A DNA stretch of 64,000 bases from NCBI GenBank assembly GCA_026388735.1, contig JAPLJG010000009.1, positions 362 through 64,361 of the forward strand, read 5' to 3'. Shown in pieces: positions 30,164 to 56,203 of this stretch. The DNA is from Deltaproteobacteria bacterium. GTDB taxonomy: Bacteria > Desulfobacterota > Desulfobulbia > Desulfobulbales > Desulfurivibrionaceae. How positions within the stretch are numbered: position 1 is the stretch's first letter; the number at the start of each line of letters is the position of its first letter. The position numbers were made by a program, and so were the translations under genes. The notes below the pieces were generated by a model that was given only the letters and a program-made list of their open reading frames with translations, had not been told where the DNA came from and searched no databases.

Positions 30164-30264
30164 GATAATTACAAAGGTGTAGGTGCATGGGGGGCATGGT
30201 CTTCCCGGCGCTTCAATTTCTACGAACGGCTGCAAATAAACTGCAGAGAAACAAGGATCTGGTC

Positions 30265-30564
30265 ATGAAACTAACAGGTATTTTCCCTCCGATTAAAACA
30301 GAGAAGGTTCAGGTTAAGAAAACTGAAGGCTCTGCCGCTGCTAAGGCTGACAGCACCGCCCTGCCAACGGATCGTGTGGTGCTGTCTGTTGGTTCCCTGG
30401 ACGTGCAGAAGGTTCGGGATATTCTTGAGCAGACGCCGGAAGTTCGTGCGGACAGGGTTCAGGCCCTCAAGGACGAAATCGCCCGCGGCGAATATCAGGT
30501 TGATCCTTCCCGGCTTGCCGATAAAATGATGGGCAGCCTGCTCTCCGAGACCTTGGTGGAGTAA
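30265..30564 (+). CDS. flgM: anti-sigma-28 factor FlgM
   Basis: 99 aa from MKLTGIF. The C-terminus RVQALKDEIARGEYQVDPSRLADKMM is the FlgM signature. The track ORF starts at 30187, and I consider the shorter form more likely (AAGGA Shine-Dalgarno sequence). Confidence 0.8.
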   Translation: MKLTGIFPPIKTEKVQVKKTEGSAAAKADSTALPTDRVVLSVGSLDVQKVRDILEQTPEVRADRVQALKDEIARGEYQVDPSRLADKMMGSLLSETLVE

Positions 30565-30713: not shown

Positions 30714-31199
30714 TTATTCCGCCGAATCCGTGGTGAAAACGGGCCAGCAGGCATCGTATCGCATGGGATCCTGCAATACCTGTTTGGCTAGACGCGTCTG
30801 GGGGTTGAGCGCCACCGGGCCGAGGAGGTTGGCCGTCATCCCTTCGGTGTTCTCCTTGGGGATGGTCAGGATGAGCAGGATTTCCAGGGGTTGTTCCGGC
30901 GAGCCTTGCAGTTCCTGCCGGGTCAGGCTGGAGATTTCCGGCTGGTATTGCGGGATCAGGAGGGCGGCCTGAATAGCCACAAAGGCGAGCTTTGGGTCAT
31001 CCAGGGACTGGAGCCAGAGAAACGGTGATTCTTCTCCGTGCGGCTTGACGATGAACCGTTTTGAATCAGGGAAGCCCAGAAAAGGGGAGGTCATGCTGAT
31101 GATCTTCTCCGGGTTCACTGACAGTTGGCCAAAACGGCTGGTGGACACCGTGATTTCCCCATGTTTTTCCGTGCAGGTTGTTGTGGTCATGGCGAGCAT
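30714..31199 (-). CDS. fliW: flagellar assembly factor FliW
   Basis: 161 aa. FGQLSVNPEKIISMTSPFLGFPDSKRFIV...FLWLQSLDDPKLAFV is typical of FliW. Confidence 0.9.
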   Translation of the reverse strand: MLAMTTTTCTEKHGEITVSTSRFGQLSVNPEKIISMTSPFLGFPDSKRFIVKPHGEESPFLWLQSLDDPKLAFVAIQAALLIPQYQPEISSLTRQELQGSPEQPLEILLILTIPKENTEGMTANLLGPVALNPQTRLAKQVLQDPMRYDACWPVFTTDSAE

Positions 31200-31295: not shown

Positions 31296-31562
31296 TTATT
31301 TGCCGCCTTTCAGCGGCGGTTTGGTCCGGGCCTTGTCTCCGCCAAAAACAGAAGCAAGGGAAGAAAGATCCGCAGGAGCCTCCGCTGCAGCTCTAGTGTT
31401 TTCTTCCAGGATGCGGAGGTAGATTTCTTCGCGGTGGACCATGATCTCGGTTGGGGCCTCGACCCCGATCTTCACCTGTCCGCCCTTTATCTCAAGAACC
31501 CGAATCTTTATGCCATCGCCAATGGCAATGGCTTCGCCTGGTTTTCTGGTAAGTATGAGCAT
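31296..31562 (-). CDS. csrA: carbon storage regulator CsrA (long C-terminal, FliW-partner type)
   Basis: The sequence [48 protein letters not shown], plus a ~30-aa C-terminal extension. Confidence 0.95.
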
Positions 31563-31647: not shown

Positions 31648-34600
31648 CTACTTGAGAAAGTCTACCAGGCTCAGCTGCATGGTTTTGGCGGCGGCCGACA
31701 AGGCCGCTTGGTAGGCTGTTTCTTTGCCTTTGAGTTCCAGCAAGGCCTTTGTAATATCGGTGTCTTCCTTTTCCGAGAGATTTGTCTTGGTGGACAGCTC
31801 AAGGTTTGAATAAATCTGCTGTTGGACAATGATCCGGTTCGCCCGGGCGCCAAAATCGGAGACCTGGGTAGTCAGATTCTGCATGAGGTCATCCAGCCCG
31901 GCAATGGACTTGCTGATATTGCTGACTTGGGCGTTGTCCGTTTCGCAGCCTGTGACCCGCAGGAAATTGCTGGTGTCGCCGGAGAGAGCAAAGGTGTAGC
32001 GTTCCGGGTCATTGCTGCTGATCTGGAGATGTCCGTCTGCCGACCAAGACGCGGAGATGCCGGGCACCCCATTGATGCGGCTGGCGATGTCTGACAGGGA
32101 ATCCTTGGCGGTGTCAATATTGATGGGCACCGAACTTGTTGTGGCCGGGCTGGTGTCGTGGTTGCTCACCGCAATGGTGAATGAGCCATTTTGTAATTCG
32201 TTCTCAAGTGTAAGTCCTGTTTTGCCGCTGTTCATGAAAGCGCTGGCGTCGAGAGCCTTGGCCGCGCCGTCAAGCGTTGTATAATTTTGTCCTCGCAAGG
32301 CATCCTGGAGACTTTTGAGGATAGTGAAAATGCCGGTATCCATGACAGCGGACTGGCCGTTTTTGCCCACGTCTATCGTGCTTTGCTGGCCGACCTTGAC
32401 TGCGAAATCATTTTTTCGGTCTCCGGCGTAACGGACATAGCCATTTTCGTATTCGATCTTGTTGACGAAGATTTTGCCGTCATCGGCGGTGTCTCCCGTT
32501 TGTCCGGTGACAGGGGCTCCTCCGGCAAGTCCAAGAGCGTTAAAGCCGGTTTCGTAATTTGTAACCGCTCCCACCGTGGTGGTGTTGCTGTTCATGAAGA
32601 ATTCCTTGCCGCCCCACAGGCGGAGCTCGCCGAAGTAAACCTGGTCTTGGGGGGCGGTGCCACCGTTGAGCTGAGTGACTTTTTCGCCAAGGGCACTGGT
32701 CTGGATATGAAGGTTGCGTCCGTCCATGGCAGAGAGAATAATCTGCCCGATATTGTTTCTCCCAGCCTTGATCCCGGTTTGGTCCGTTTTTGCGTTGATG
32801 GCGTTGATCAGGGTATTGCTGCTATCTCCAGAGGTTATGGCCGTTGCGTGTGAAAATATATCTATTCCGTTGATGGTGAGGTCTCCGCTTTTCAGGTAGA
32901 TCGGGGTGGAGCCATATTCGAGGGTGCCGTCCGCTGCGATATCTCCGGTGATGCCGGTGTTGGTTTCCCCGCCGCCCAGATTAAGGCCGTCAAGGATGGA
33001 ATCATCGAGAGGGTGGGTAGGACTCGAGAGCTGAAAGGCCGTTGCCGAGGAAAAGGAAACGCTGCCGGTGTTGTGTGTGGCATCGGCAGCTTGGTTGACA
33101 TTGGAGAGGCCGGTGCGCGCTATTTCAGTCGCGCTCAACCCTGCCACCACGATGGGGCTTTCGTCGCCGGTTAGGGAATTGTAAAGGACGAGAGAATCGG
33201 TAATGCCGCCATTGGTGCCGGTGCCGGTGGTGGCCATCACTCCTGTCTGCTTGCTCACTGCGTTGATGGCGCTCATCACTTGTGAGGCCACGGCGTTGTC
33301 TGTCAGCCCCGAGGCATTGACGCTGACAGTCACGCCATTGATGGTGAAGCTCGCCGCCGAAGAACCGAGGGCGGTATGGTCGGCCTTCACGCCGCTGGAG
33401 TACAGGGTGGTGAGGGAGGCGGTCACCCCGGTGGAGCCGCTGGCGGCATTGATGGCCTGTTTGGTATTATCCGCCATGCCCATATTGAGGCCATTGGTGA
33501 CGGCGCCGGCGGCAATGGCGCCCAGGGCAACGCCGTTGATGGCAAGATCGCCGGCGAGGATGCCGATGTTCTGTGGGGTGGCGACGAGTTTGCTCGTCTC
33601 GGTGCCGCTGGCCACTGCGGCAACCGCAGTGATGCTGGTGGGGGCCACGGTGGCGGAAACGCCGGTCTGGCTGGTGGCGTTGTTGATGGCTGCGGCCTTG
33701 GCCGTGGCCGAGATGTCTTGGTAGACGTCGGAGATGCCGTCGGCTACGGTGGTGATAGCCGTGCCGTTGATGTCAAGATCTCCGGAGCCTAGACGGGAAC
33801 CGTAGAGTAGAGTCCCATCGCCGGCGTTGTCGGCAAAGCCCTGGAGCCCGCCTCCCAGACCGAGAAGGTTGAGGACGGTGTCGTTCGCTGTGCTGGTGGT
33901 GATTTCAAATGCAGAGGTGGATGAGAGAGAAAGTGTGCCTGTATTGTTGTTGTTGCCAATCGCTTGGTTGATGTTGCCAAGGCCGGTTGTGGAGGCTCCG
34001 GCCACCGCATATCCGGTAATAATGATGTTTGAGTCGTTTCCGGCCAGGGTGTTGTGTAACACCACGGAATCCGCTATCCCGCCGTTGGCGCCGGTGCCTC
34101 GCGCCGCAGTGACTCCGGTACGATCACTTATGCTGTTGATGGCAGCCACAGTGGCATTGGCGGCGGCGGTGGTGGTGAGGTTGTCGTCTATGCTCACGTT
34201 GACCGGCACCCCATTGAGGTAAAAGAAGGCGTTGGTGGTGGTGCCTGGGGCGCCGCCAGGGACAGTTGCTGCTGCGCCTGCGGAGAGGGTGGTCAGCTTG
34301 GCGGTTACCCCCTCAGTGGCTTTATTGTCGGAAAGGCCGGTGATGGTCTTTTCCGTAGCGTTGAGGCCGGTGATGGTCATGGCCGAACCGTCATTCGAGC
34401 GGAGGATGATGGCATTGGCCTCCCCGCCGTTGGCGCCGGTGCCTTTGCTGGCGGTGATCGTGGAGCTGGCGAGATTGATGGCAGTGACCATTTTGTCGGC
34501 CACGGTACTGGCGTTATCCCCCGCGACGGTGGTCACATCGATTAGGTCACTATTGAGGTAAAAGGCCACCCGGGAGGCGGTGCCCGTGCCGGTTGCCGCC

Positions 34601-35346
34601 ACACCTGCGTAAGGCGAGGCAAGGGTGTCGCTGACTCCGGTCTGGGAGATGACCTTCTGATTGTTGATGGCGCTGGCGGCGTTGAAGACGCCGTCCATGT
34701 TCAGGCCGTTGACCCCGGCGTTGGTGATATCGATTGTGCCAGCAATATTTGCCACATCCACCCCGTTGATCAGCAGGTTTGTCGCAGCAATATCGACCGC
34801 CGCGCCAGTGGGGACCGTGCTGGTTAACCGGGTGGTGCTGCTGTCTGGCATGCGGCCGCCGCTGACAAAGTATCCGTCCCTGGCATCTTGAACAAAGGGG
34901 GCGGGCTCGGTCTTGGTGTAGCCGGTGGTGCGGAAGCCGCCAAAGGTGTACTTGCCGTTGACCGAGGTGTTGCCCAGAGTGATTGCCGACTCGAAAAGGT
35001 GTTGCACTTCTTCCGCAGCACTCAATCTGTTTTCCGGAGTCACGGAGGCATTGGCCAGTTGGATGGCCAGTACCTTGGCCCGGGAGGCGAGCTCCTTCAT
35101 CTGGGTGAGAGAGTTTTCCGCAGCGGTGATGGTCTTGTCGCCGAACTTGAGATTGTCCTGGTACGAGGTGATTTGGGTGAGACTGCTCCTGAGCCCAAGG
35201 GCTGTCACCAGGTTGACCGGATCATCGGAGATTGTGGACATCTGCTTTCCCGAGGAGATCTGGTTGTTGACCCGGTTCATATCCGTGGTGAGCTGGTTGA
35301 GATTCGTCAGGATATTGTTGTGGATGGACTGCATGGTGATTCGCAT
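31648..35346 (-). CDS. flgL: flagellar hook-associated protein 3 FlgL, greatly expanded (1232 aa)
   Basis: The N-terminus [15 protein letters not shown] matches the FlgL/flagellin-N pattern, and the C-terminal helix is flagellin-C-like. The gene lies directly downstream of flgK. A ~950-aa repeat-rich insert sits between the conserved termini. Confidence 0.85.
32758..34566 (-). repeat. coding tandem repeats inside flgL (three copies of one module, the first partial)
   Basis: R0 spans 34324-34566 (partial), R1 spans 33646-34227 and R2 spans 32758-33351. All three align by eye at the protein level (see findings). Confidence 0.75.
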
Positions 35347-35358
35347 GGGTTCCTCCTT

Positions 35359-38196
35359 TTACACCGCATCAAGCAGGGTCTTAAGCATCTCGTCCGACAT
35401 GGTGATGAGACGGGCGGCGGCGGTGTAGGCGTGCTGGTATTTGATCAGATTCGCCATCTCTTCATCCAGGGAAACGCCGGAGACCGAATCGCGCATTTCG
35501 CTCACCTGTTTGTTGACCAGCACCGTGGAATCGTAGGATTGGCTGACGGTGCGTGAGGTGTTGGCAACCTGGCCGACCAGGGTATTGTAAAAGCCATCTA
35601 AAGTATTCTGGGTACCGCCGGTGAAGGTAACATACTCATCGTGCTGGGCGTTCGTGATCTTGAGGGAGTTGGTGTTGTCTCCGCTATATATTTCCCCCAG
35701 TGAGTTAACGGTGGCTGCTGCCAGATTGTTGAGGTTACTCGTAATCATACTGTTCAGACCGATACTTGCCGCGCTGTTGCCGGAGAAAAAGGTGTTGAGT
35801 CCGGCAACCTGGAGAAAGTTTGAGGTGTCGTTGGCAAAGGCGAACTGGTGGGTGGCGTCCGGGGTGAGACGCAGGCTGTTGTCGGAGTTTGAGGCCGTTA
35901 CCCAGCCGCTGCTGTTGGTGGCCGCGGCAACCGTTTTATTGATGATGTTGGTGACGTCATTCAGGCTGTAAGCCCGGTCCAGGGAAATGGTGACGGGCTT
36001 GGGCATGGCCAGTGTGCCGTCGTCCTTGTTGTAGATCCAGATATCGAAACTGCCTTTGTCCGTGCTCAGTTGGTTAAAGTATTTATATCCGGAGAGCAAG
36101 GGACCTTCGGGGCCATCTTCATAGGTGAAGGTGAATTTTCCATCGTTGGCAACCGTGTCGCCAGCTACCTTGCCTACCTGAGCGGTGAAATTTCCGAAGC
36201 CGAAGATGGCACCGTTGCCCATCGTGGTGGTGAAGCTGTCCACCACGATGGGGGTGTTGTCGCCGGACGCGTTGTTCTCAAAATGGATTTTGCCGTTGAC
36301 GAGGCTCACCGTGATGGCCGGAGGTGGGGCTGGAGCGGCATTGATTCCTGCTTGGACCGCAGCCACTAGTTGGGTGGCTGACTGGTTGGCAAGAGCATTC
36401 ACCGTAATCGGTTTTCCGTTGAGATTGAAAGTGATGGTAGTGAGCGGGTTGGTGGAAGTGTTATCCACGGTGCCGCCATCATAAAAGGTGGTGGCCTGAT
36501 TGCCGCCGCCCATGCCGAGTTGTGCTAGGGTATAGTCATTGGGGCCGGCATCAACAGTGATGGTACTGGTGGAAAATAGAGTGATCTCTCCGGTGTTGTG
36601 GCTGGCATCGGCGTTGTAGGTGCCTGCGGTGAGACCGGTGGATGCTGCAAGGCCGGCCACGGAGGAGGTCAGGTTGTCAATAACGATATTTGACTCATCG
36701 CCGGGGTTGGTATTTTTCAGAACAATGGAGTTCGCCGCTCCGCCATTGGTTCCATCCCCGACTACGGCTTCGATGGTGATGGGATTGGCGGTGGTGGGCA
36801 ACGCATTATAGGTGTTCAGGGCGCTGGTGATGGCGCCGACCAGATGGCCGGCAAAGGTGGCAACATTTCCTGCCCCCACATCGCCAGCCACTACAGGGTA
36901 GCTGACCGTGACGCCGTTGATATCAAAGGAGATGGTCTTACCGATATTGGCAACACCGGGATCTGTCACTGCTGTGCCTGCCGTCAGTGTTGTCAATCGT
37001 GCTTCGACCCCGGCCTCCGCTGCGTTGATGGCGGTCACGGCATTGGCTGCCTTGGTCATGGCCAGACCCTTTACCGCTACGCCGCCAATAATCTCGCCGA
37101 CAGGCCGGTCATTGATGGTGATGGTGCCCGCCGGGATGGCCATGTTCGCAGTGGAAGCGTCTACAGGAGTTGTCAATCGCGCCACATTTTCTACCTGTTC
37201 CGAACCGGTCAGAGAATCGCCGAACACGGTTAGGCCAACCCCCTGGGAATGTTGTTGGTTGATCTCGCGGATCAGGGAGTTGGCAAATGCGTCCAGGCGG
37301 CCAAGGAAATTGTTTGGGTCGCCTTCGGCCAGATTACCGCGGACCTCGAGCCAGCCTCCGATTTTGCCGCCTAGTTCCGCTCCAGCACCAATGGGTTGGC
37401 TGGTTTCGGCGCCTTTGTTGTCTTTGCTTATCCAAAGGAGTTTGTTGTTTGCCCAGTCCACCTTTGAGGTTTGATTGCCGTCCACCAGGGTGTGGCCGTC
37501 GGCCATGAGAACAGTGTATCCGCCGTTTTTATCCTCGAAATAGGTGACGTCAAGCAGGCTGGAAAGATTCTGGACTAGGGTGTCTCTTTTGTCGCGTAAG
37601 TCGTTGGCTTGGCCTGCCGAAGATTCCGCCCCGGAAATCTGTACGTTGAGATCGGCGATCTGGCTGGTGATGGAGTTGACGTCGCCGACAGCCGTGTCAA
37701 GACTGGTGCTGATATCGAATTTGGCCTGGACCATTTGACTGGCCATGGAATGCAGCTGATCAACGATCAGCTGGGAGGACTGGATCACAGCCTGTCTGGT
37801 CGCAGGTACGTCTGGGTTGTCGGCCAAGCCTTGCCAACTGCCCCAGAATTTGCTCATCAGGTCGTTGATGGCAAGGCCCGGCGCTTCATTGAATACGGTT
37901 TCCACCAGTTTCATGGAGTCCTGCTGCGCCTGGAGGCTGCCCAGGCTTGATTCCTGGTTGGCAAGGCGTTGCACCATGAACTGGTCGTAGTTCCTCAGGA
38001 TTTTTGTGCCCGTCACGCCGCCGCCCAGCATGCCGGCGCTGATGGGGGTCGCATTGTTGGCTTCCAGTTGCAGCGATTGTCTGGTGTAGCCGGGGGTGTC
38101 AACGTTGGCGATATTGTTCGATGCCACCTGGATCGAAAGCTGGTGGGTGAGGAGCGCCTCCTTGGCGATGCTCAGTACATGGGAGATGCCGGCCAT
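35359..38196 (-). CDS. flgK: flagellar hook-associated protein 1 FlgK, expanded (945 aa)
   Basis: N-terminus LSIAKEALLTHQLSIQVASNNIANVDTPGYTRQ and C-terminus GVSLDEEMANLIKYQHAYTAAARLIT are FlgK hallmarks. The central insert contains the same module as FlgL. Confidence 0.9.
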   Translation of the reverse strand: MAGISHVLSIAKEALLTHQLSIQVASNNIANVDTPGYTRQSLQLEANNATPISAGMLGGGVTGTKILRNYDQFMVQRLANQESSLGSLQAQQDSMKLVETVFNEAPGLAINDLMSKFWGSWQGLADNPDVPATRQAVIQSSQLIVDQLHSMASQMVQAKFDISTSLDTAVGDVNSITSQIADLNVQISGAESSAGQANDLRDKRDTLVQNLSSLLDVTYFEDKNGGYTVLMADGHTLVDGNQTSKVDWANNKLLWISKDNKGAETSQPIGAGAELGGKIGGWLEVRGNLAEGDPNNFLGRLDAFANSLIREINQQHSQGVGLTVFGDSLTGSEQVENVARLTTPVDASTANMAIPAGTITINDRPVGEIIGGVAVKGLAMTKAANAVTAINAAEAGVEARLTTLTAGTAVTDPGVANIGKTISFDINGVTVSYPVVAGDVGAGNVATFAGHLVGAITSALNTYNALPTTANPITIEAVVGDGTNGGAANSIVLKNTNPGDESNIVIDNLTSSVAGLAASTGLTAGTYNADASHNTGEITLFSTSTITVDAGPNDYTLAQLGMGGGNQATTFYDGGTVDNTSTNPLTTITFNLNGKPITVNALANQSATQLVAAVQAGINAAPAPPPAITVSLVNGKIHFENNASGDNTPIVVDSFTTTMGNGAIFGFGNFTAQVGKVAGDTVANDGKFTFTYEDGPEGPLLSGYKYFNQLSTDKGSFDIWIYNKDDGTLAMPKPVTISLDRAYSLNDVTNIINKTVAAATNSSGWVTASNSDNSLRLTPDATHQFAFANDTSNFLQVAGLNTFFSGNSAASIGLNSMITSNLNNLAAATVNSLGEIYSGDNTNSLKITNAQHDEYVTFTGGTQNTLDGFYNTLVGQVANTSRTVSQSYDSTVLVNKQVSEMRDSVSGVSLDEEMANLIKYQHAYTAAARLITMSDEMLKTLLDAV

Positions 38197-38199
38197 GGC

Positions 38200-38719
38200 C
38201 TAGACCTCCCTGCTGATCAAGGAAGGTTGGTTCAAGGAAGACTTCCTGCTGAGGCCGGTGAGGCCGTACATGGGTCGGTCCGCTATCCCGCTGGTGATGA
38301 GCAATATGGCGTCGTTCAGATATGTTTTTACATCCTCGGCAAAATGCCTGTTGATCTGGTTGCGGCTGAGGATGTCTTCCCGCAGCCCTGCCAGCTTTTT
38401 CCGATTGGCCGAGTTTGTTCCCTTCTTCCGGGTTGAGCAGGGGAATGAGGGCGGCAAGTCTTGCCGGTTTGCCGGTTGCTTCCGGGTTGAACTCTGCGGC
38501 CAGGTTGGCGAGCAGGGAGTCCAGGACCTGGATGCGGCTCAGCCTGTTTTCTTTCTTGCCGCTCAAGCGGATGAGGGCCTGCATGTCCATGGCCACCAGG
38601 GCTTTTTGTTCTTCGCTCAAGATGGCGAGCATGTCCTGGGAAAGAAGGATTTCTTGGTCCAGAGCCTCGAAGAATTTGGCGGGCAGGGAGCGGTGCCCTG
38701 TGGTCTTTGAGTGTTGCAT
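38200..38719 (-). pseudogene. flgN: flgN (flagellar export chaperone) interrupted by a 1-nt frameshift
   Basis: The N-terminal ~100 aa (FFEALDQEILLSQDMLAILSEEQKALVAMDMQAL...) are in the frame starting at 38719. The plausible C-terminus (NRKKLAGLREDILSRNQINRHFAEDVKTYLNDAI...) is in the +1 frame and ends with TAG at 38200-38202, 3 nt before the flgK ATG. The switch lies around 38385-38425, which includes a T5/A5 run at 38396-38400. Confidence 0.6.
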
Positions 38720-43987: not shown

Positions 43988-44069
43988 TATGGGCGCTGTG
44001 TTAATGGTTGCATGAGTGTGTGGTCACAGGGGCAGTTGCTGCAATTATACCCGACATCAATCGGAGCGG

Positions 44070-44801
44070 ATGAAAAAAATGCAATTCGGACAGACCTTGC
44101 AGTCGGGAAGGCTTATCTTGCGGTACAAGCGGTTTCTTGCCGACGTGGAAATGGACGATGGCCGCCTGCTCACCGTGCATTGCCCGAATTCCGGCAGCAT
44201 GTCGGGCTGCAAGGAGCCTGGCAGCCCGGTGCTCATCTCCCTGGCGGACAACCCCAAGCGCAAATATCCTCATACCCTGGAGATGGTGCGGGTGGGCACG
44301 ACCTGGGTGGGGATCAACACCGCCCGCACCAATGGATTGGTCTCCGAGGCTATTCAAGCCGGGGTGGTGGCGGAACTGGCCGGGATCGAGACGATCCGGC
44401 CTGAGATTAAGGTGTCGAATAAGAGTCGGTTGGACTTTTTGCTTACCCGCGGGGAGGAGAAGATCTATCTGGAGGTGAAGAATTGTAGCCTGGCCCTGGG
44501 TAGGGCGGCCATGTTTCCCGATGCCGTGACCACCCGGGGCGCGAAGCATCTGGCCGAGCTGCTGACCCTGCGCCAAACCGGCTGTCGGGCCGTGGTTTTT
44601 TTCTGTGTCCAGCGGGAGGATGTGGATTATTTCTCTCCGGCCGGTCACATCGATCCGGGCTATGCGCAGGCTCTGCGGGAGGTGGCGGCCCTGGGGGTGG
44701 AGGTGCTGGCCTATGGCGCGGCCTTGAGCCCGGAGGCGATCACCATTGTCCGGAAGTTGCCGGTTTTTCTTGCCTCCCCTCCCTCGACGGGAGGGGATTG
44801 A
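44070..44801 (+). CDS. sfsA: sugar fermentation stimulation protein / DNA-binding nuclease SfsA
   Basis: The sequence RYKRFLADVEMDDGRLLTVHCPNSGSM...NKSRLDFLL...EVKNC is characteristic of SfsA. The start is set at MKKMQF. Confidence 0.9.
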   Translation: MKKMQFGQTLQSGRLILRYKRFLADVEMDDGRLLTVHCPNSGSMSGCKEPGSPVLISLADNPKRKYPHTLEMVRVGTTWVGINTARTNGLVSEAIQAGVVAELAGIETIRPEIKVSNKSRLDFLLTRGEEKIYLEVKNCSLALGRAAMFPDAVTTRGAKHLAELLTLRQTGCRAVVFFCVQREDVDYFSPAGHIDPGYAQALREVAALGVEVLAYGAALSPEAITIVRKLPVFLASPPSTGGD

Positions 44802-44972
44802 GGGGAGGGTGAAGTTGCCGAGAGCCTCGCCTGTGGCAAGCACCCCCACTCCCGCAGGGGGCGGGGGACTTTGTCACATAATGTATACTCGAATTTTCTC
44901 AGCTTGCTTCGCGGCAACCCTTACAATGGAGTGGGAACAGAAACTGCCGCATGGCGCGGCAACGGGAGATAT

Positions 44973-45668
44973 ATGATGCAGGAAAAACGAAAAGCCGTGG
45001 TGCTTTTGAGTGGCGGGCTTGATTCGGCCACGGTCCTGGCCATGGCCATGGCCGAGGGCTATGAGTGTTGCTGTCTCAGTTTCGCCTACGGTCAGCGCCA
45101 GCAGGTGGAGCTGGAGCGGGCCAAGGCCAATGTAGCCCGGAGGGGGATCGCAAAGCATCTCATCCTTCGCCTTGATCTCGACGCCATCGGCGGCTCGGCC
45201 CTGACCACGGATACCGCAGTGCCCAAGGGGCGCAGTCAAGCGGAGATGAACGCTTCCATCCCCATCACCTATGTGCCGGGCCGCAACACGATCTTTTTGT
45301 CCTATGCCATGGCCTGGGCCGAGGTGCTGGGCGCGGGCGATGTGTTCCTCGGGGTCAATGTCATGGATTACAGCGGCTATCCCGACTGCCGCCCGGAATT
45401 TCTCGAGGCCTTTGAGCGCATGGCCAATCTCGCCACCAGGACCGGAGTGGAAGGGGAAACCCGTTTCCGGGTCCATGCCCCGCTCCTCAAGCTGACCAAG
45501 AGGGAGATCATCGAAAAGGGGTTCGAACTCGGGGTGGATTACGGTCTGACCCATAGCTGTTATGACCCGGACCAAAAGGGCCGGGCCTGCGGCTCCTGCG
45601 ACAGCTGCCTGTTGCGGCTCAAGGGGTTTGCCGAGGCCGGGCGGGTTGATCCGGTGGAGTATCAGTGA
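44973..45668 (+). CDS. queC: 7-cyano-7-deazaguanine synthase QueC
   Basis: Contains [16 protein letters not shown] (PP-loop) and the C-terminal Zn motif [20 protein letters not shown]. The start is set at MMQEKRK. Confidence 0.95.
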
Positions 45669-46696
45669 AAATGCCCAAATGTGAAAGCAGAGAGGAAACC
45701 ATGAAGAATGCATTGGGCGGCCTGTTTATGGTCGGCCTGCCTGGGACGGAGTTGGATGATTCCACCCGCAACCTCATTAATATGTATGGGATCAATAATT
45801 TCATTCTCTTCAAGAGAAACGCCGAGAGCCCGGAGCAGATCCGCACCCTCTGTCGCGGGCTGGCTGATGCCTGCCGCGCCGCCGGGCTGGGCGCGCCGCT
45901 GATCTCCATTGATCAGGAGGGCGGCACCGTGGCCCGGCTTAAATCCCCCCATTTCACCAAATTTCCCGATGCCAGGGCGCTGGCGGAAAGCGACCGGGCC
46001 GAGGAGCTGCTGACCGATTATGCCCGGATCTGCGCCAAGGAGCTGCTGGCGGTGGGGATCAACATGAACCTGGCCCCGGTGCTGGATGTGAGCCCGGCCG
46101 GGCTGGGGTTGTTCATGGAACGACGGAGTCTGGGCGGAACCCCGGAGCAGGTGGCCCGCTTGGGTGCGCTGGTGATTGCGACCATGCAGGAGAACGGCTT
46201 GGCTGCCTGCGCCAAGCATTTTCCCGGCTTAGGCGGAGCAACCCTGGACCCCCATAAGGTACTGCCCGTGGTGGATCGTTCGCTGGCAGAGCTGCGCGGG
46301 TGTGATCTGGTGCCGTTTGCCGAGGCGATACGGGCGGGGGTGGCCGGGGTGATGACTTCCCACACCGTGTATCCGCAGCTTGATCCCGATCTGCCAGCCA
46401 CCCTGTCGCCGCAGATTTTGGGCGGAGTGCTTCGTGACGAGTTGGGCTATGACGGGATGGTGGTTACTGACGACCTGGAGATGGGGGCCATCGAGAATGA
46501 AGGCACTGTGGCGGATGCCGCCTTGGTCGCTTTTAAGGCCGGGGCGGATATGCTGCTGATCTGCCATGAGTATTCGAAGATTATTGCGGCACATAAACTA
46601 TTAAGTAAGGTGGTTGGTGGGGAGATTTCCGAGGAGAGGGTACGGAGGTCATTGGCGCGGATTGGTGCGGTACGTAGGCGGTTTGCAGGGGATTGA
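45665..46696 (+). CDS. nagZ: beta-N-acetylhexosaminidase NagZ (GH3)
   Basis: Contains [27 protein letters not shown] and [10 protein letters not shown], which are GH3/NagZ motifs. Confidence 0.85.
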
Positions 46697-47662: not shown

Positions 47663-48196
47663 ATGGAACTACAAGTTGAAGGACGGAACCTGGAAATTCG
47701 TAAGGTTTGGCAGGAAAAAATCGAAGAGGAGAAGGGGCGCCTTGATCGCCATCATCCCGGGCTTGTTCACCATCTGCGCATCTCCATTGAGGAGACCGCC
47801 GGGCATAAGACGGGCGGCCATGAGGTCCGCCTGGTTGCTTCCGTTCCCAATGACACCGTGGTTGTGAAAAGAAAAGGCGAGGCGGTGCGGCCTCTGTTGG
47901 TCGAGGCGTTTGACACCTTGGGCCTCCAGTTGAAGGAGATGCAGCGCAAGCGGCGGCAGAACGGCAAGGAGCCAGAGGCTGGGGCTGTCGGACCGGCCAT
48001 GGGCACCATCAAGAGCCTGTTCCCCTATGAGTCCTACGGGTTTCTCATGACCCCGGACGGCCAGGAGGTATATTTTCACGAGAACGCTCTCAAGGACGTG
48101 ACCATGGCCCAGTTGGCCGAAGGCGACGGGGTTCGCTTTGGCGAGGGCGAAGGGGATAAAGGGCCGACGGCGGCTTGGGTAAAGCTGGCTAAATAA
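47663..48196 (+). CDS. HPF/RaiA ribosome-associated factor fused to a cold-shock-like (CSD/OB) domain
   Basis: The N-terminal ~100 aa are S30EA/HPF-like (MELQVEGRNLEIRKVWQEKIEE...). The C-terminal ~60 aa (GTIKSLFPYESYGFLMTPDGQEVYFHENAL...GDKGPTAAWVKL) align by eye with CspA ([27 protein letters not shown]...GAKGPAAGNV). Confidence 0.8.
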   Translation: MELQVEGRNLEIRKVWQEKIEEEKGRLDRHHPGLVHHLRISIEETAGHKTGGHEVRLVASVPNDTVVVKRKGEAVRPLLVEAFDTLGLQLKEMQRKRRQNGKEPEAGAVGPAMGTIKSLFPYESYGFLMTPDGQEVYFHENALKDVTMAQLAEGDGVRFGEGEGDKGPTAAWVKLAK

Positions 48197-48222
48197 GCAA
48201 GCGAACGCGGAGTAGCACACAG

Positions 48223-48257
48223 GGCGCAAAGATACCAGGAAAAGAGATCTTTGCGCC
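48223..48257 (+). terminator. hairpin terminator candidate after the HPF-CSD gene
   Basis: GGCGCAAAGAT, a 13-nt loop, then ATCTTTGCGCC form a perfect 11-bp stem, followed by TTGGTATAT. Confidence 0.45.
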
Positions 48258-48305
48258 TTGGTATATCCGCGGTACATAAAATTTTCGGGAGAGAAGGACA
48301 GACCG

Positions 48306-49397
48306 ATGACCGTGTTGCAGCAGGTTGAGCTTGGCTCGGAATACCTGCAAGAAAAAGAAGAAATAATCTGCCAAAGGATTGCCGCCCGCAAGAAAGAGCT
48401 GGGCGGCAATCTTTTGATTTTGGGGCACCACTACCAGCAGGAGGCGACCTTCCAGTTCGCCGATCTGACCGGGGATTCCCTCAAGCTTGCCCGTAATGCC
48501 GCCGCGGCCAAGGACCGGAAGTACATCGTTTTTTGCGGCGTGCATTTCATGGCCGAATCCGCCGACATCCTGACCTCTGCGGACCAGGTGGTTATCCTTC
48601 CCGATCTCCGGGCCGGTTGCCCCATGGCCGACATGGCCGATAGCGACGAGGTGGCCTCGGCCTGGCAGGAGCTGACCGGTGTGGATACAGGCCGGGTCAT
48701 TCCCGTGACCTATGTCAACTCCTCGGCCCGGATCAAGGCCTTTGTCGGGACGCGGGGCGGTTCGGTCTGCACCTCGTCCAACGCCGAGCGGGTGCTGACC
48801 TGGGCACTCTCCCAGGGGGACAAGGTCTTTTTCTTTCCTGACGAGCATCTGGGCCGCAACTCTGCCAGCGCCTTGGGGATTCCCGAAGATGAGGTGGTGC
48901 TCTGGCAACGCGGCATGCCCTTGGGCGGCAACACCCTGGAGGCGCTGCGCAAAGCCAAGGTTATTCTCTGGAATGGCTACTGCACAGTGCACATGGAGTT
49001 TACCGCTGCCCTGTTGGACCAGTGGCGTGAGCGGGTTCCGGGAATCCGAATCATCGTGCATCCCGAGTGCCGCAACGAGGTGATGAGTCGGGCCGATCAG
49101 TATGGCTCCACCGAGGCGATTATCAAGGCGGTGGCCGACTCTTCGCCGGGTAGCAAATGGGCTATCGGTACCGAGGTCAATCTGGTGAACCGGCTCAAGA
49201 GTCAGTATCCGGATCGGGAGATCCATCTGCTTGCCCCGTCTCCGTGCCTTTGCGAGACCATGTACCGCATCCGACCGGCCAGCCTTCTCTGGGTGCTCGA
49301 CAATCTGGCCCAAGGGCGGATTGTTAATCAGATCACGGTGCCGCTCGATGTGGCGGCGGATGCTAAACTTGCCCTGGACCGGATGCTGCGGATATAA
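48306..49397 (+). CDS. nadA: quinolinate synthase NadA
   Basis: LILGHHYQQEATFQFADLTGDSLKLAR...FCGVHFMAESADIL is the NadA pattern. The start could be MTVLQQ (48306) or the upstream GTG/ATG at 48258. Confidence 0.9.
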   Translation: MTVLQQVELGSEYLQEKEEIICQRIAARKKELGGNLLILGHHYQQEATFQFADLTGDSLKLARNAAAAKDRKYIVFCGVHFMAESADILTSADQVVILPDLRAGCPMADMADSDEVASAWQELTGVDTGRVIPVTYVNSSARIKAFVGTRGGSVCTSSNAERVLTWALSQGDKVFFFPDEHLGRNSASALGIPEDEVVLWQRGMPLGGNTLEALRKAKVILWNGYCTVHMEFTAALLDQWRERVPGIRIIVHPECRNEVMSRADQYGSTEAIIKAVADSSPGSKWAIGTEVNLVNRLKSQYPDREIHLLAPSPCLCETMYRIRPASLLWVLDNLAQGRIVNQITVPLDVAADAKLALDRMLRI

Positions 49398-49439
49398 CCG
49401 GACGTTTTGTTCCTGATATGACGTAACAAGGATTTTGCC

Positions 49440-51284
49440 ATGTGTGGAATAGTTGGGTATGTGGGGCAGCGGCATGTGCTGCCCATTCTTTTGGAAGGTT
49501 TGAAGCGCCTGGAGTACCGGGGCTATGATTCGGCCGGGGTGGTGTATGTGCACGGCGGCAAGCTCCAGAAACACCGGGCTGCGGGCAAACTCGGCAAGCT
49601 CGAAGAGCTGCTGGAGACGGTGCGGGACCGCGACAGCCATATCGGCCTGGGCCATACCCGCTGGGCAACCCACGGCGCGCCTTCCGAGATCAATGCCCAT
49701 CCGCATTGCGACTGTAGCGGCGACTTGGTTGTGGTTCACAACGGGATCATCGAGAATTACCATACCCTCCGGGAAGAGCTGAAGGGACGCGGGCATGTCT
49801 TCTGCTCGGAAACCGACACCGAGGTGTTGGCCCATCTCATCGAGGAAGAGCTCTCCTCCGGCGATCTGGTTAAGGCGGTGCGCCAGGCCCTGAAAAAGGT
49901 GGAAGGCTCCTACGCCATCGGGGTTTTGTGGGCTGGCCAGCCGGACAGGCTGGTGGCGGTGAGACACCAAAGCCCGTTGGTTCTGGGGATTGCCGAGGGA
50001 GGAGGCTGCCTGATGGCCTCCGACATCCCGGCCCTGCTTCCCTACACCAATCAGGTGGTTTTTCTGGAGGATGGGGAGCTTGCCGTCCTGAAGCAGGGGG
50101 ACTGGCAGGTGATGGGTCTGGCCAGCGGCAAGAAGGTGGCCAAGGAGATCAAGACCATCGAGTGGAACGCGGCCATGGCCGAGAAGGGCGGGTATCGGCA
50201 TTTCATGCTCAAGGAGATCTTCGAGCAGCCCCAGGCCATCCTTAACACCTTCCGGGGTCGGCTCGATCCGGAAACCGGCCAGGTGCAACTGCCCGAGATT
50301 GGTCTGAGCGCGGCGGAGCTGAAAAAGATCAGCCGCATCTCCCTGGTGGCCTGCGGCACCTCCTGGCATGCGGCCCTGGTGGCCAAATACTGGCTGGAAA
50401 AATGGGTGGGCATCCCGGTGGAGGTGGATATCGCCTCGGAGTTCCGTTACCGTCGCCTGTTGCTGGACGAAACCGTGATGGTGGTGCCCATCTCCCAGTC
50501 CGGTGAAACCGCCGACACCCTGGCAGGCTTACGGCTGGCTAAGAAGATGGGGGCCAAGGTCATCGCCATCTGTAACGTCTTGGGCAGTACCATCACCCGT
50601 GAGTCCCATGGCACGATTTACACCCATGCCGGGCCGGAGATCGGGGTGGCCTCCACCAAGGCCTTCACCTGCCAGCTCACGGCCCTGTTGCTGTTCACTC
50701 TCTTTTTGGGCGAGCGCCGCAAGACTATTGCCCCCAAGGACCGCAAGGCCATTGGCCAGGCCCTCCTCGACCTGCCCGCCCTTATGGAGCAGGAGCTGCC
50801 CCGATTGCAGGAGGAAACCGCCTGCATCGCCGAGGCCTTTGCCCAGAGCCGGGATTTTCTTTATTTGGGCAGGGGAAGCAATTTCCCCATCGCCCTGGAA
50901 GGGGCCTTGAAACTCAAGGAGATATCGTACATCCATGCCGAAGGCTATGCGGCAGGCGAACTCAAGCACGGCCCCATCGCCCTCATCGACCGGGATATGC
51001 CGGTTCTGGCATTGGCCCCTCGCGACAGTGTCTACGAAAAGGTCATTTCCAACGTGGAAGAGATCAAGGCCAGAAACGGCAGGATCATTCTCGTTGCCAA
51101 TGCGGACGACAAAAACTGCAAGCGCATCGCCGAAAAGGTGATCACGGTGCCGGTCTGCCACGAGGAGTTGACCCCGATCCTCTTTGTATTGCCCTTGCAG
51201 CTGCTGGCCTATGAGATTGCCATTCTGCGCGGCTGTGATGTGGATCAGCCACGTAACCTGGCCAAGAGCGTCACGGTGGAATAG
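49440..51284 (+). CDS. glmS: glutamine--fructose-6-phosphate aminotransferase GlmS
   Basis: 614 aa. It begins MCGIVGYVG, has two SIS domains and ends ...NLAKSVTVE. Confidence 0.97.
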   Translation: MCGIVGYVGQRHVLPILLEGLKRLEYRGYDSAGVVYVHGGKLQKHRAAGKLGKLEELLETVRDRDSHIGLGHTRWATHGAPSEINAHPHCDCSGDLVVVHNGIIENYHTLREELKGRGHVFCSETDTEVLAHLIEEELSSGDLVKAVRQALKKVEGSYAIGVLWAGQPDRLVAVRHQSPLVLGIAEGGGCLMASDIPALLPYTNQVVFLEDGELAVLKQGDWQVMGLASGKKVAKEIKTIEWNAAMAEKGGYRHFMLKEIFEQPQAILNTFRGRLDPETGQVQLPEIGLSAAELKKISRISLVACGTSWHAALVAKYWLEKWVGIPVEVDIASEFRYRRLLLDETVMVVPISQSGETADTLAGLRLAKKMGAKVIAICNVLGSTITRESHGTIYTHAGPEIGVASTKAFTCQLTALLLFTLFLGERRKTIAPKDRKAIGQALLDLPALMEQELPRLQEETACIAEAFAQSRDFLYLGRGSNFPIALEGALKLKEISYIHAEGYAAGELKHGPIALIDRDMPVLALAPRDSVYEKVISNVEEIKARNGRIILVANADDKNCKRIAEKVITVPVCHEELTPILFVLPLQLLAYEIAILRGCDVDQPRNLAKSVTVE

Positions 51285-52745: not shown

Positions 52746-52949
52746 GCTGTTTTTTCTCCGTCTTGTCGGGTTTATGGCAGCGTTGGCTTGAGAATTTGCT
52801 GCTTCCATAGTAGGATGTGCCGCAGATATAGATCCGGCGAGCAGCGCAGCGTGTGCTCCATGGGTTCTGGATAAAGTATACAGCATTATTCTGCCGCCAG
52901 GCCAAGGCAAAATCAACTGGGCTTGCAGCGGCGTGCATTAGGAGCGAAG

Positions 52950-54077
52950 ATGAAGAAAAAAGCATTGATTACCGGGGTGACAGGGCAGGACGGTGCCTAT
53001 CTGGCGGAATTTCTCCTGGAGAAAGGCTACGAGGTGCATGGCCTGAAACGGCGGACCTCCCTGTTCAACACCGATCGCATCGACCATATCTTTCAGGACC
53101 CCCATGAAACAGATGTAGCCTTTATCCTGCACCATGGTGATATGACCGATTCCAGCAGCCTGATTCGGATCATCCAAAAGGTGCAGCCCGATGAGGTGTA
53201 CAACCTCGCTGCCCAGAGCCATGTGGCCGTCTCCTTCGAGGAGCCGGAATACACCGCGGATTCCGATGCCCTCGGCGCCTTGCGGATTCTGGAGGCGATC
53301 CGGATTCTGGGGCTGGAGAAAAAGACCAGATTCTACCAGGCCTCGACCTCGGAGCTGTTCGGCAAGGTGCAGGAGACCCCGCAGCGGGAAACTACCCCGT
53401 TTTATCCCCGGTCGCCCTACGCGGTGGCCAAGCTCTATGCCTACTGGATCACGGTGAACTACCGGGAGGCCTATGGGATCTATGGCTGTAACGGGATTCT
53501 GTTCAACCACGAATCCCCCATCCGCGGCGAAACCTTTGTCACCCGAAAAATCACCCGTGGCCTTGCCCGGATCGCCGTTGGCCTGCAGAGTTGCATCTAT
53601 CTCGGTAACATGAATGCCCTGCGGGACTGGGGACATGCCAAGGATTTCGTCGAGATGCAGTGGCTCATGCTCCAGCAGGAGAGCCCGGAGGATTTCGTGA
53701 TCGCCACGGGCGAACAGCACAGTGTGCGGGAGTTTGTCGAGGTGGCGGCCGGGGAGCTTGGGGTTCGGCTCCGCTGGGAGGGTGAAGGGGTTGGTGAGAT
53801 CGGTATCGTGGCCTCGCTGGCCGATGCCCCGGAAGGCACCGGCTTCACTGTGGGGCAGGCCATTGTCCGGGTGGATGCCCGCTACTTCCGGCCCACGGAG
53901 GTGGAAACCCTGTTGGGCGACCCGACTAAGGCTAAGGAAAAGCTGGGCTGGACCCCAAAGATCACCTTTGCCCAGCTGGTAACCGAGATGGTGCACGAAG
54001 ATCTTTCGATCGCTCGGCGGGATAAAATGTGCCAGCAGAGCGGATTCAAGGTTTTCAACCGGCACGAACAGCCGTAA
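52950..54077 (+). CDS. gmd: GDP-mannose 4,6-dehydratase
   Basis: [31 protein letters not shown]...[10 protein letters not shown] is classic Gmd. Confidence 0.95.
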
Positions 54078-54089
54078 TCTCTCTGGGCG

Positions 54090-55025
54090 ATGAAGATGAA
54101 GGTTCTGATAACCGGCGGCAATGGCCTGGTCGGGCGCAATTTTCGGGAGCATCCGGCGGCGGCCGGGTTCGAGATTCTGGCCCCCTCCAGCAGCGAGCTC
54201 AACCTGCTCGATTACGGGCAGGTCGCGCAGTATCTTGCCGAGCACCGGCCCGAGGTGATCATCCACGCCGCAGGCCGGGTTGGCGGGATTGAGGCGAATC
54301 TGCGGGAGCCGGTTCGGTTTTTTCTGGATAATCTCGACATGGGCCGCAATCTGGTTTGGGCCGCCCGCCAGCAGGGCGTGCCCCGCCTTATCAATCTCGG
54401 CAGCTCCTGCATGTATCCGCGCAACGCCGCCAATCCCCTGCGGGAGGAGATGATCCTCCAAGGGGAGCTGGAGCCGACCAACGAAGGCTATGCTCTGGCC
54501 AAGATCGCCACAGCCCGCCTCTGTCAGTATATCGCTCGAGAAGACCGCGGCTATGCCTATAAGACCCTGATCCCCTGCAACCTCTACGGCCGCCATGATA
54601 ATTTCGACCCGGCCAGCTCCCATCTCATCCCGGCTGTTATCCACAAGATGCACCGGGCCAGGCAGGAGAATAGGGAGACGGTGGAAATCTGGGGCGACGG
54701 CCTTGCCCGGCGGGAGTTCATGTCTGCCGGCGACCTGGCCGATTGCCTGGTCAAAGCGGTGTGCGCTTACGAAAGCCTGCCGGAGATGATGAACGTGGGG
54801 ATCGGGCAGGATTGCACCATCCTCGAATATTACCAAACGGTTGCCGAGGTGGTCGGTTTCCGGGGCACCTGTGTGCACAATCTGGCCAAGCCCGTGGGCA
54901 TGCAGCGCAAACTCGTCGATGTGACCCGGGCAGCCGCTTGGGGCTGGACCGCCCAAACCTCGCTTAAGCACGGCATCGGGCAGGCGTATGACTATTACTT
55001 GCAACAGCAGGAGCACGGAGCATGA
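54090..55025 (+). CDS. GDP-4-keto-6-deoxy-hexose epimerase/reductase (GDP-L-fucose synthase family; Fcl or ColC)
   Basis: 311 aa. GSSCMYP, EPTNEGYALAKI and SSHLIPAVI match the Fcl/WcaG catalytic motifs. The adjacent colD-like gene suggests a ColC role. Confidence 0.85.
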   Translation: MKMKVLITGGNGLVGRNFREHPAAAGFEILAPSSSELNLLDYGQVAQYLAEHRPEVIIHAAGRVGGIEANLREPVRFFLDNLDMGRNLVWAARQQGVPRLINLGSSCMYPRNAANPLREEMILQGELEPTNEGYALAKIATARLCQYIAREDRGYAYKTLIPCNLYGRHDNFDPASSHLIPAVIHKMHRARQENRETVEIWGDGLARREFMSAGDLADCLVKAVCAYESLPEMMNVGIGQDCTILEYYQTVAEVVGFRGTCVHNLAKPVGMQRKLVDVTRAAAWGWTAQTSLKHGIGQAYDYYLQQQEHGA

Positions 55026-56203
55026 GCAGATATCCCTTGGCATGTACCTCCTGGGACGAGGCGGAATATGAGGCCATGGCCCAGGTTGTTCAATCCGGCA
55101 GATTTTCCATGGGCGAGCATGTCGCAGGCTTTGAGCAGGAGTTTGCCCTCCATTTCGGCTCGCGCTTCTGCGTCATGGTCAATTCCGGTTCTTCGGCGAA
55201 CCTGCTCATGGTGGCAGCCCTCTTTTACCGGGAAAACAAGGCAGAGCGGCTGGCGGCTGGGGACGAGGTCATCGTGCCTGCGGTTTCCTGGAGCACCACC
55301 TATTTTCCTCTGCATCAGTATGGCTTGAAGCTCAAATTTGTCGATATCGATCCTGCCACCCTGAATTATGACCTTGCCCAGCTTGCCGATGCCGTAAGCG
55401 AGCGGACCCGGTTGGTCATGGCGGTGAACCTTCTGGGAAACCCCAACGATTTTGCCGCGATTCAGACGATCCTGGCAGGCAAGGGTGTGATCCTCATCGA
55501 AGACAACTGCGAGTCCATGGGCGCGGCCTTTGAAGGGAAGATGGCAGGAACCTTTGGCCTCATGGGCAGTTTCAGCTCGTTTTTCAGTCACCACATCTCC
55601 ACCATGGAAGGAGGGATGATCCTCACCGACGACGAGGAGTTGGCCCATATCCTCCTCAGTCTCCGGGCCCACGGCTGGACCAGAAACCTGCCTAAGGTGA
55701 ACAGGGTTTGCGGCGTGAAGGGGGATAATCCTTTCGAGGAGTCTTTCCGTTTTGTGCTGCCCGGCTACAACGTGCGCCCCCTGGAACTCAGCGGCGCCCT
55801 GGGGATGACCCAGATACGCAAGCTCTCGGAATTCGTAAGAGTCCGCCGGGAGAATGCCGCCAAATTCCTCCGCCTCATGGAGGCCTTTCCGCAGCTCCAG
55901 GTCCAGCGCGAGATCGGGGCAAGCAGTTGGTTCGGCTTCAGTCTGGTGGTGCGGGAGGATGCACGGTTTTCCCGGGAGGATGTGGTCCGAACCCTGGATG
56001 GCCATGGCATTGAGTGTCGCCCGATCGTGGCGGGTAATTTTGCTCGCTGCGAGGCCGTGCGCTGGCTCGATGCCACGAACCACGGTTCTCTTGCCCAGGC
56101 GGACTGGATTGACCGCAACGGTCTTTTTATTGGCAATCACCACTACCCGTTGGATGAACAGTTTGCGCTTCTCGGCGAGGCGCTCAAAAAATTGCCCTGC
56201 TGA
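55022..56203 (+). CDS. PLP/PMP-dependent DegT-family sugar 3-dehydratase, ColD-like
   Basis: 393 aa with a DegT/DnrJ/EryC1 fold. At the usual Schiff-base position the sequence reads SFFSHHISTMEGG, which has no Lys and a His pair instead. This is the feature reported for ColD and E1 (RfbH) dehydratases. Confidence 0.75.
   Translation: MSRYPLACTSWDEAEYEAMAQVVQSGRFSMGEHVAGFEQEFALHFGSRFCVMVNSGSSANLLMVAALFYRENKAERLAAGDEVIVPAVSWSTTYFPLHQYGLKLKFVDIDPATLNYDLAQLADAVSERTRLVMAVNLLGNPNDFAAIQTILAGKGVILIEDNCESMGAAFEGKMAGTFGLMGSFSSFFSHHISTMEGGMILTDDEELAHILLSLRAHGWTRNLPKVNRVCGVKGDNPFEESFRFVLPGYNVRPLELSGALGMTQIRKLSEFVRVRRENAAKFLRLMEAFPQLQVQREIGASSWFGFSLVVREDARFSREDVVRTLDGHGIECRPIVAGNFARCEAVRWLDATNHGSLAQADWIDRNGLFIGNHHYPLDEQFALLGEALKKLPC

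Follow-up and report, generated by a model that had tools for sequence, protein, structure and literature searches.

FlgL (HAP3) is a protein of the hook-filament junction of the bacterial flagellum and is about 317 amino acids (aa) long in enterobacteria. To our knowledge, structures of the junction exist only for Salmonella, whose FlgL lacks outer domains, and for Campylobacter, where the resolution is low and FlgL carries one bulky region. Campylobacter and Helicobacter FlgLs of 750-930 aa have already been tabulated (NCBIfam models; the giant-flagellin survey in PMC6248924). The table of that survey also lists a FlgL of 983 aa from Desulfurivibrio alkaliphilus, a second Flagellin_N protein of 933 aa from the same species and a 1126-aa 'Deltaproteobacteria' protein, and FlgLs were filtered out of the giant-flagellin analysis (PMC6248924). 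Here we describe the flgL gene encoded in a 64,000-nucleotide stretch of DNA (hereafter the window; contig JAPLJG010000009.1 of assembly GCA_026388735.1) from a Deltaproteobacteria bacterium of the family Desulfurivibrionaceae, order Desulfobulbales. Its 1232-aa product belongs to a known kind of protein but differs from the described members in architecture; such oversized FlgLs are routine in Desulfobulbales yet unstudied.

With Salmonella FlgL (317 aa; PDB 9go6, 2d4x) the window protein shares the D0/D1 core and the position of its gene after flgK, but it adds ~985 residues to a protein without outer domains. The FlgLs of C. jejuni and H. pylori (~750-830 aa; PDB 9gsx) are likewise enlarged: electron cryomicroscopy (cryo-EM) of the junction shows their canonical D0/D1 with a bulky region outside it. 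However, the window FlgL is 1.5-1.65 times longer than these proteins and its insert has no sequence similarity to the FlgL models of Helicobacter and Campylobacter past aa ~140. The FlgLs of Xanthomonas campestris and Legionella pneumophila (PDB 5ziz, 7c7z, 5yti) also expose a variable outer domain, for which a role in reinforcing the junction has been proposed, although there it is a single D2 as opposed to the eight IN-type units described below, and these structures are matched through D1 only. The unit fold and the sequence motif of the window protein are those of the outer domains of flagellin and FliD (PDB 6x80, 9ygu, 9yh1, 8erm, 2zbi, 6iwy; Flagellin_IN); here, however, they are carried on FlgL, eight in tandem, while one to five IN motifs are usual in hook-associated proteins and flagellins (PMC9751261). 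Giant flagellins of more than 1000 aa, such as those of Bermanella and Oleibacter, are also axial proteins enlarged by tandem outer-domain repeats, are associated with thick flagella, and come from a survey whose table includes Desulfobulbales (PMC6248924), but they build the filament itself, in thousands of copies. Finally, a quasi-homotypic contact between the D2 domains of FlgK and FlgL has been proposed in Burkholderia (PMC6155364), to which the module common to FlgK and FlgL in the window provides a parallel.

Identity and length of the window FlgL

The window protein is a genuine FlgL. Its frame begins with ATG and is uninterrupted over 1232 aa, and TIGR02550, the NCBIfam equivalog model of FlgL, matches it in two stretches with 175.1 bits against a cutoff of 127.2. 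A first-pass annotation, made from the sequence alone, had described a FlgL of about four times the enterobacterial size with canonical N- and C-termini and had proposed a search for three Pfam domains. The size and the termini are as described, and all three models matched above threshold: Flagellin_N with 56 bits (aa 6-137), Flagellin_C with a marginal 23.1 bits against a cutoff of 23.0 (aa 1149-1231), and Flagellin_IN (PF07196) with 39 bits against a cutoff of 22.7, in two stretches of which the best covers aa 1055-1113. In addition, Salmonella FlgL (9go6) matches aa 1-164 in phmmer (E = 3e-10), and in Foldseek the modelled core fits the in-situ structure of Salmonella FlgL with an rmsd of 3-4 A across ~120 residues. 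The gene adjoins flgK on its downstream side, with 12 nucleotides (nt) from the flgK stop, and belongs to a late flagellar operon that includes flgN; the arrangement is the same in D. alkaliphilus, in Thiovibrio sp. JS02 and in one metagenomic contig.

The best flagellin models reach 26-42 bits against cutoffs of 347-752 and match the N-terminus or one internal unit only, and the models of Campylobacterota-type large FlgLs, NF006265 and NF011282, give 71 and 42 bits against cutoffs of 749 and 878, within aa 1-140 only. The protein has the size (>1000 aa) and the pf00669 domain that enter the definition of a giant flagellin (Thomson et al. 2018); since it classifies as FlgL, it falls outside that definition.

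The length of the protein is no assembly artefact. The identical 1232-aa protein is encoded by nine other contigs, and the three of these that were shown come from three different sequencing runs. Orthologues of 1199-1245 aa share 55-79% identity with it, and the complete genome of Thiovibrio sp. JS02 encodes a syntenic orthologue of 1220 aa with 60% identity, which makes it the closest named genome; a scan of genome contigs gave only relatives with 44-54% identity. The flgL DNA contains short and weak repeats only, with no long near-identical repeats among them.

An insert of duplicated flagellin-type modules

Between the two terminal regions lies an insert of ~985 aa (98.4 kDa, net charge -38, isoelectric point (pI) 4.39) in which Ser and Thr together make up 21.9% of residues. 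Over aa 151-1050 the composition is 13.8% Ala, 12.9% Thr, 12.7% Gly, 8.6% Ser and 8.3% Asn, in agreement with the earlier description of the insert as rich in Thr, Gly, Ala and Asn. In a BLAST self-comparison the insert resolves into ~2.5 copies of a supermodule of ~290 aa, and judging from this pattern it evidently grew by tandem duplication of that supermodule.

In the protein we examined the motif A-I-N-x(4-6)-T-G-[VI], of which at least seven occurrences had been claimed. The five examples quoted are present (aa 402, 553, 631, 693 and 849), but they are also the only strict matches; when x=7 is permitted the count is six, with the addition of aa 226. Eight AIN tripeptides occur in the protein, and the one at aa 602 lies in the 'LAING' strand of U5, not in an AINxxxxTGV helix. 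A count of seven is obtained with a hidden Markov model (HMM) built from the IN units, itself based on predicted structure, and the AlphaFold2 (AF2) secondary structure gives eight, with degenerate units at ~aa 258-312 and 1052-1105. In shuffled versions of the protein (n=2000) the mean motif count was 0.005-0.007 and the maximum 1-2, so that the occurrence of the motif in FlgL is far beyond chance. The proposal that the insert consists of Flagellin_IN-type units is upheld.

The AF2 model of aa 33-1232, computed with 51 aligned homologues, is a confident one, with a mean predicted local distance difference test score (pLDDT) of 86.9 and a predicted template modelling score (pTM) of 0.80. It depicts terminal helices flanking eight beta-alpha-beta 'IN' units with beta-rich segments between them. 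When aa 590-905 were modelled alone, pLDDT was 89.4 and pTM again 0.80. The pTM suggests that the packing of the domains is defined, as opposed to beads on a string.

We compared the modules with known proteins. Residues 821-941 of FlgL align in phmmer with residues 249-368 of H. pylori flagellin, and the FlgL units and the outer domains of flagellins and FliD have in common the consensus INGxxx...AINxxxxTGVxA. A Foldseek search with the module model found the beta-domain of Sphingomonas p5 as the best match, together with C. jejuni and H. pylori flagellins, P. aeruginosa FliC D2/D3 and H. pylori FliD; there was no FlgL chain among the top 50 matches listed for this model. Sphingomonas p5 was the first Flagellin_IN structure to be solved; this flagellin is located at the cell surface, binds alginate and has one Flagellin_IN motif (PMC9751261). 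With the whole model the best match was the flagellin of Geovibrio thiophilus, and C. jejuni FlgL (9gsx_A) was matched with a probability of 0.98. The outer region of the window FlgL is made of flagellin/FliD-type domains, unlike the outer domains of solved FlgLs, because the module matches are to flagellins and FliD, the 50 listed include no FlgL, and the Campylobacterota FlgL models match aa 1-140 only. The latter two results are also the reason why the enlargement appears to have been acquired independently of that in Campylobacterota.

The modules extend into the neighboring gene. FlgK, which has 945 aa in the window and ~550 aa in enteric bacteria, is homologous to the FlgL supermodule over aa ~340-670, with ~40% identity (BLAST, HMM), and the last unit of FlgL (aa 1054-1136) resembles FlgK aa 715-802. 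The insert of FlgK has a mass of 46.7 kDa and a pI of 4.35. These similarities imply that the adjacent flgK and flgL genes have exchanged modules or that their modules have a common origin. An HMM search of the window found modules in FlgL and FlgK only, and no other module-carrying gene or flagellin.

Four proteins of 968-1452 aa (P0120, P0121, P0140 and P0141) contain several IN-type units and have no match to the N- or C-terminal regions of flagellin; models of the sulfatase-modifying-factor/GldK-like kind also match P0121 weakly. The occurrence of the module is therefore not limited to the axial proteins of flagella.

Distribution and evolution of FlgL size

The first-pass annotation regarded a junction protein of this size as an unusual architecture, which does not hold for the clade. 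All 99 FlgL clusters recovered by homology search, from Desulfobulbaceae, Desulfurivibrionaceae and Thiovibrio, encode proteins of 808-1812 aa, and cultured members with a large FlgL include D. alkaliphilus (983 aa), D. dismutans (875 aa) and Thiovibrio sp. JS02 (1220 aa). Novelty was to be lost if FlgLs of 1000 aa or more were both routine and characterized in the clade. They are routine, but we found no study that characterizes them, nor anything specific in the literature on FlgLs longer than 1000 aa. When the insert was searched against 1.84 billion cluster representatives, only 128 proteins were found at E <= 1e-3; these include giant flagellins, one FlgK and FlgLs of 614-660 aa, and also a small number of proteins that lack the termini of flagellin.

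In about 100 Desulfobulbales FlgL clusters, with lengths from 657 to 1812 aa, length follows the number of IN units as counted with the unit HMM: FlgLs with two units have ~650 aa, those with four ~880 aa, five ~990 aa, six ~1110 aa, seven ~1230 aa (the window protein), eight 1355-1492 aa and twelve 1812 aa. FlgK has 838-955 aa in all related loci examined. In a neighbor-joining tree of FlgL cores the unit number changes between close sisters, and the window FlgL falls in a clade of seven-unit proteins with a nested six-unit subclade. The cores of P0037 (1130 aa, six units) and P0020 (1812 aa, twelve units) are nearly identical, as are those of P0110 (657 aa, two units) and P0078 (873 aa, four units) and those of P0028 and P0077 (992 vs 1470 aa). 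Such sisters, which differ by two to six units, point to gain or loss of modules that is both recent and recurrent.

Among seven-unit orthologues the identity of the insert is 45-88%, only slightly below that of the core, and is a mosaic along its length. One orthologue, P0002, is 59% identical to the window FlgL over aa 346-520 and 87% over aa 521-655; another, P0003, shows the reverse, with 78% over aa 346-520 and 59% over aa 521-655. This suggests that recombination or gene conversion has taken place among modules or lineages.

The flagellar locus

The features of the locus are collected in Table 1. On the minus strand the genes are ordered flgF, flgG, flgA, flgH, flgI, a rod-binding flgJ-like gene, flgN, flgK, flgL, csrA and fliW, and the order from flgF through fliW is identical in D. 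alkaliphilus and Thiovibrio sp. JS02. In Thiovibrio the shared synteny reaches polA, a SurA-like gene and a prismane-family gene. This places the source organism among Thiovibrio-like Desulfobulbales. FliW and CsrA form a classic partner-switch set, which elsewhere controls the translation of flagellin.

Table 1. Features of the flagellar locus in the window, with subdivisions of FlgL
Feature	Coordinates	Strand	Description	Evidence
flgM	30187-30564	(+)	just past fliW, followed by polA	arrangement same in Thiovibrio sp. JS02
fliW	30714..31199	(-)	161 aa	Pfam FliW, 108.6 bits
csrA	31296..31562	(-)	88 aa, between flgL and fliW	PF02599 gene call on identical contig L007, mapped to window
flgL	31648..35346	(-)	1232 aa, 125 kDa, span including stop	open reading frame, TIGR02550, synteny
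FlgL aa 1136-1232	31651..31941	(-)	C-terminal D1/D0 helix	Flagellin_C; AF2 single long helix, model residues 1104-1198
FlgL aa 151-1135	31942..34896	(-)	outer-domain insert, eight IN-type units and beta-rich spacers	
FlgL aa 1055-1113	32008..32184	(-)	U8	best Flagellin_IN stretch; resembles FlgK aa 715-802
FlgL aa 623-861	32764..33480	(-)	supermodule copy B (U5/U6, beta domain, U7)	BLAST, AF2, Foldseek
FlgL aa 337-565	33652..34338	(-)	supermodule copy A (U3, beta domain, start of U4)	~41-47% identical to aa 623-861
FlgL aa 216-340	34327..34701	(-)	partial supermodule copy (U1-U2)	BLAST vs aa 346-460 and 621-749, 35-40% identity
FlgL aa 1-150	34897..35346	(-)	N-terminal D0/D1 helices and start of beta-hairpin	Flagellin_N, AF2 helices, phmmer to 9go6
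Shine-Dalgarno AAGGAGG	35352..35358	(-)	perfect match, 5 nt 5' of flgL ATG, directly 3' of flgK stop (35359-35361)	sequence read
flgK	35359..38196	(-)	945 aa	TIGR02492 334 bits; BLAST/HMM matches to FlgL modules
flgN	38200..38719	(-)	export chaperone for FlgK/FlgL	Pfam FlgN; apparent frameshift near 38405-38412

The flgN gene shows an apparent frameshift. In a tblastn search with Thiovibrio FlgN, aa 3-98 and aa 100-166 were matched in two different frames, the second of which ends in ...SLISREV* just ahead of the flgK start. The break lies at 'CAA T CGG', outside any homopolymer, and may be either a real disruption or an assembly error.

In scans for promoters and terminators, the sigma-28 pattern had no matches, the sigma-70 and terminator scans stayed at chance level, and a sigma-54-like pattern had 14 matches against 8.2 expected, none of them convincingly placed. 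Elsewhere in the window, four putative coding frames have no Pfam match at E <= 1e-5: two on the minus strand, at 48189-50369 (726 aa) and 52938-55043 (701 aa), and two at 44001-44849 and 44874-45713.

A proposed collar around the hook-filament junction

The reading that we prefer, to which we assign a probability of about 60%, is that the window FlgL takes the ordinary place of a junction subunit, while its outer arms surround the junction of a thick flagellum as a collar. The protein would be exported through the flagellar type III system before assembly. Its N- and C-terminal helices make up a D0/D1 core of the usual type, which we infer, from the Salmonella and Campylobacter junctions, to form a single layer of 11 subunits between FlgK and the filament. 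The insert of ~985 residues separates one half of D1 from the other. Its outer domains would have to face outwards, and the earlier view of a large surface-exposed structure at the junction is sustained as a reading, with the units placed outside the junction. Eleven copies of FlgL would add ~1.1 MDa of acidic protein around the junction, and FlgK ~0.5 MDa more. Jointly with the homologous module of FlgK, such a collar might extend the layer of outer domains that surrounds a thick flagellum over the junction as well, and may stiffen, reinforce, protect or shield the connection between hook and filament.

A thick flagellum is consistent with several observations. FlgK is large (838-955 aa) in every related locus, and D. 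alkaliphilus has its second Flagellin_N protein of 933 aa. Thiovibrio sp. JS02 encodes a flagellin of 814 aa with one strong IN unit, and flagellins in the wider phylum commonly have 800-1160 aa. Giant flagellins make thick filaments (PMC6248924), and D. dismutans has been described with '1-2 thick subpolar flagella' (PMC12142623). There is also precedent for outer domains at this position: a 'bulky D2 domain' of C. jejuni FlgL is visible at the junction-cap complex (PMC12221982), and FlgL outer domains are known to vary, with D2 proposed to reinforce the junction (PMC6155364).

Some observations weigh against the collar. The number of FlgL units varies from two to twelve among close relatives at the nearly constant FlgK length given above, which speaks against an exact geometric match. 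In Thiovibrio sp. JS02, the closest relative in culture, flagellin has only one strong IN unit in common with FlgL, which weakens the case for a continuous lattice of like domains. Lastly, the frameshift in flgN, if real, would call into question whether the flagellar system works in this genome.

Alternative readings

It is also conceivable, though we consider it unlikely, that the filament base serves in attachment and not in mechanics, with the acidic outer domains binding minerals, elemental sulfur, polysaccharide or other surfaces. The charge and pI of the insert (-38 and 4.39) would suit such a hub, but acidity is typical of ordinary flagellar outer domains and extends to FlgK here. The whole-model match to Geovibrio thiophilus points in the same direction, as this organism is a sulfur reducer and the negative surface of its flagellin has been proposed to adhere to positively charged minerals (PMC11532411). 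So do the best module match, alginate-binding Sphingomonas p5 (PMC9751261), and the presence of IN-type modules in proteins without flagellin termini. On the other hand, Pfam revealed no recognizable binding site or carbohydrate-binding domain, and only ~11 copies would be available, near the cell and on a rotating part.

Slightly less probable still is a changeable surface coat, in which the turnover of modules would evade flagellotropic phages or grazers or would carry glycans, and the precise structure would matter little. The difference in unit number between very close relatives (6 in P0037 vs 12 in P0020; 2 in P0110 vs 4 in P0078) and the mosaic identity of orthologues along the insert fit this reading, as does a Ser and Thr content of 21.9%; the outer domains of Campylobacter flagellin are heavily O-glycosylated. 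However, unlike hypervariable flagellin domains, the insert comes close to the core in conservation within a length class. No flagellin or glycosylation genes were found among the flanking genes of the window that were scanned with Pfam, and the junction is a tiny target in comparison with the filament.

That the protein is a giant flagellin, a proximal filament subunit polymerizing in many layers and not in a single-layer junction, is very unlikely. Some homologues are labelled 'flagellin' in databases, and a double layer of FlgL has been modelled without clash in Salmonella (PMC12221982). Yet the FlgL equivalog is passed, the gene directly follows flgK in all genomes examined, and Thiovibrio sp. 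JS02 has its separate 814-aa flagellin. We rejected flagellin identity on the scores of the flagellin models, all of which lie far below cutoff.

The reading of the length as a product of misassembled repeats or of a decaying gene, for which the repetitive protein sequence and the apparent frameshift in neighboring flgN could be cited, is effectively refuted by the divergence of the internal copies (35-47% identical as protein, ~45% between the supermodules) in DNA without long repeats, by the identical protein on nine contigs with three runs among those shown, by same-length orthologues of which one is in a complete genome, and by an open frame with a strong ribosome-binding site.

Implications

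A more far-reaching form of the collar, which we regard as possible but doubtful, is that Desulfobulbales flagella have the largest junction known: a rigid, strongly acidic, 11-fold collar of ~1.5 MDa, which FlgL and FlgK would build from one duplicating module common to both. Modules would be gained and lost rapidly, between two and twelve units, and the size of the collar would be adjusted in this way. Besides connecting hook and filament, the collar would serve a function of its own, possibly as a mechanical hub for a thick filament or as a device for attachment to particles of sulfur or minerals.

The clade provides a natural series of FlgLs with two to twelve outer units on an otherwise constant set of flagellar genes. 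As cultures exist for several of these organisms (Desulfurivibrio, Thiovibrio), what outer domains do at the junction is directly testable in this series, and the growth of axial proteins by duplication of modules and their exchange between neighboring genes is testable as well. The giant FlgL extends the known diversity of flagella and introduces no new principle.

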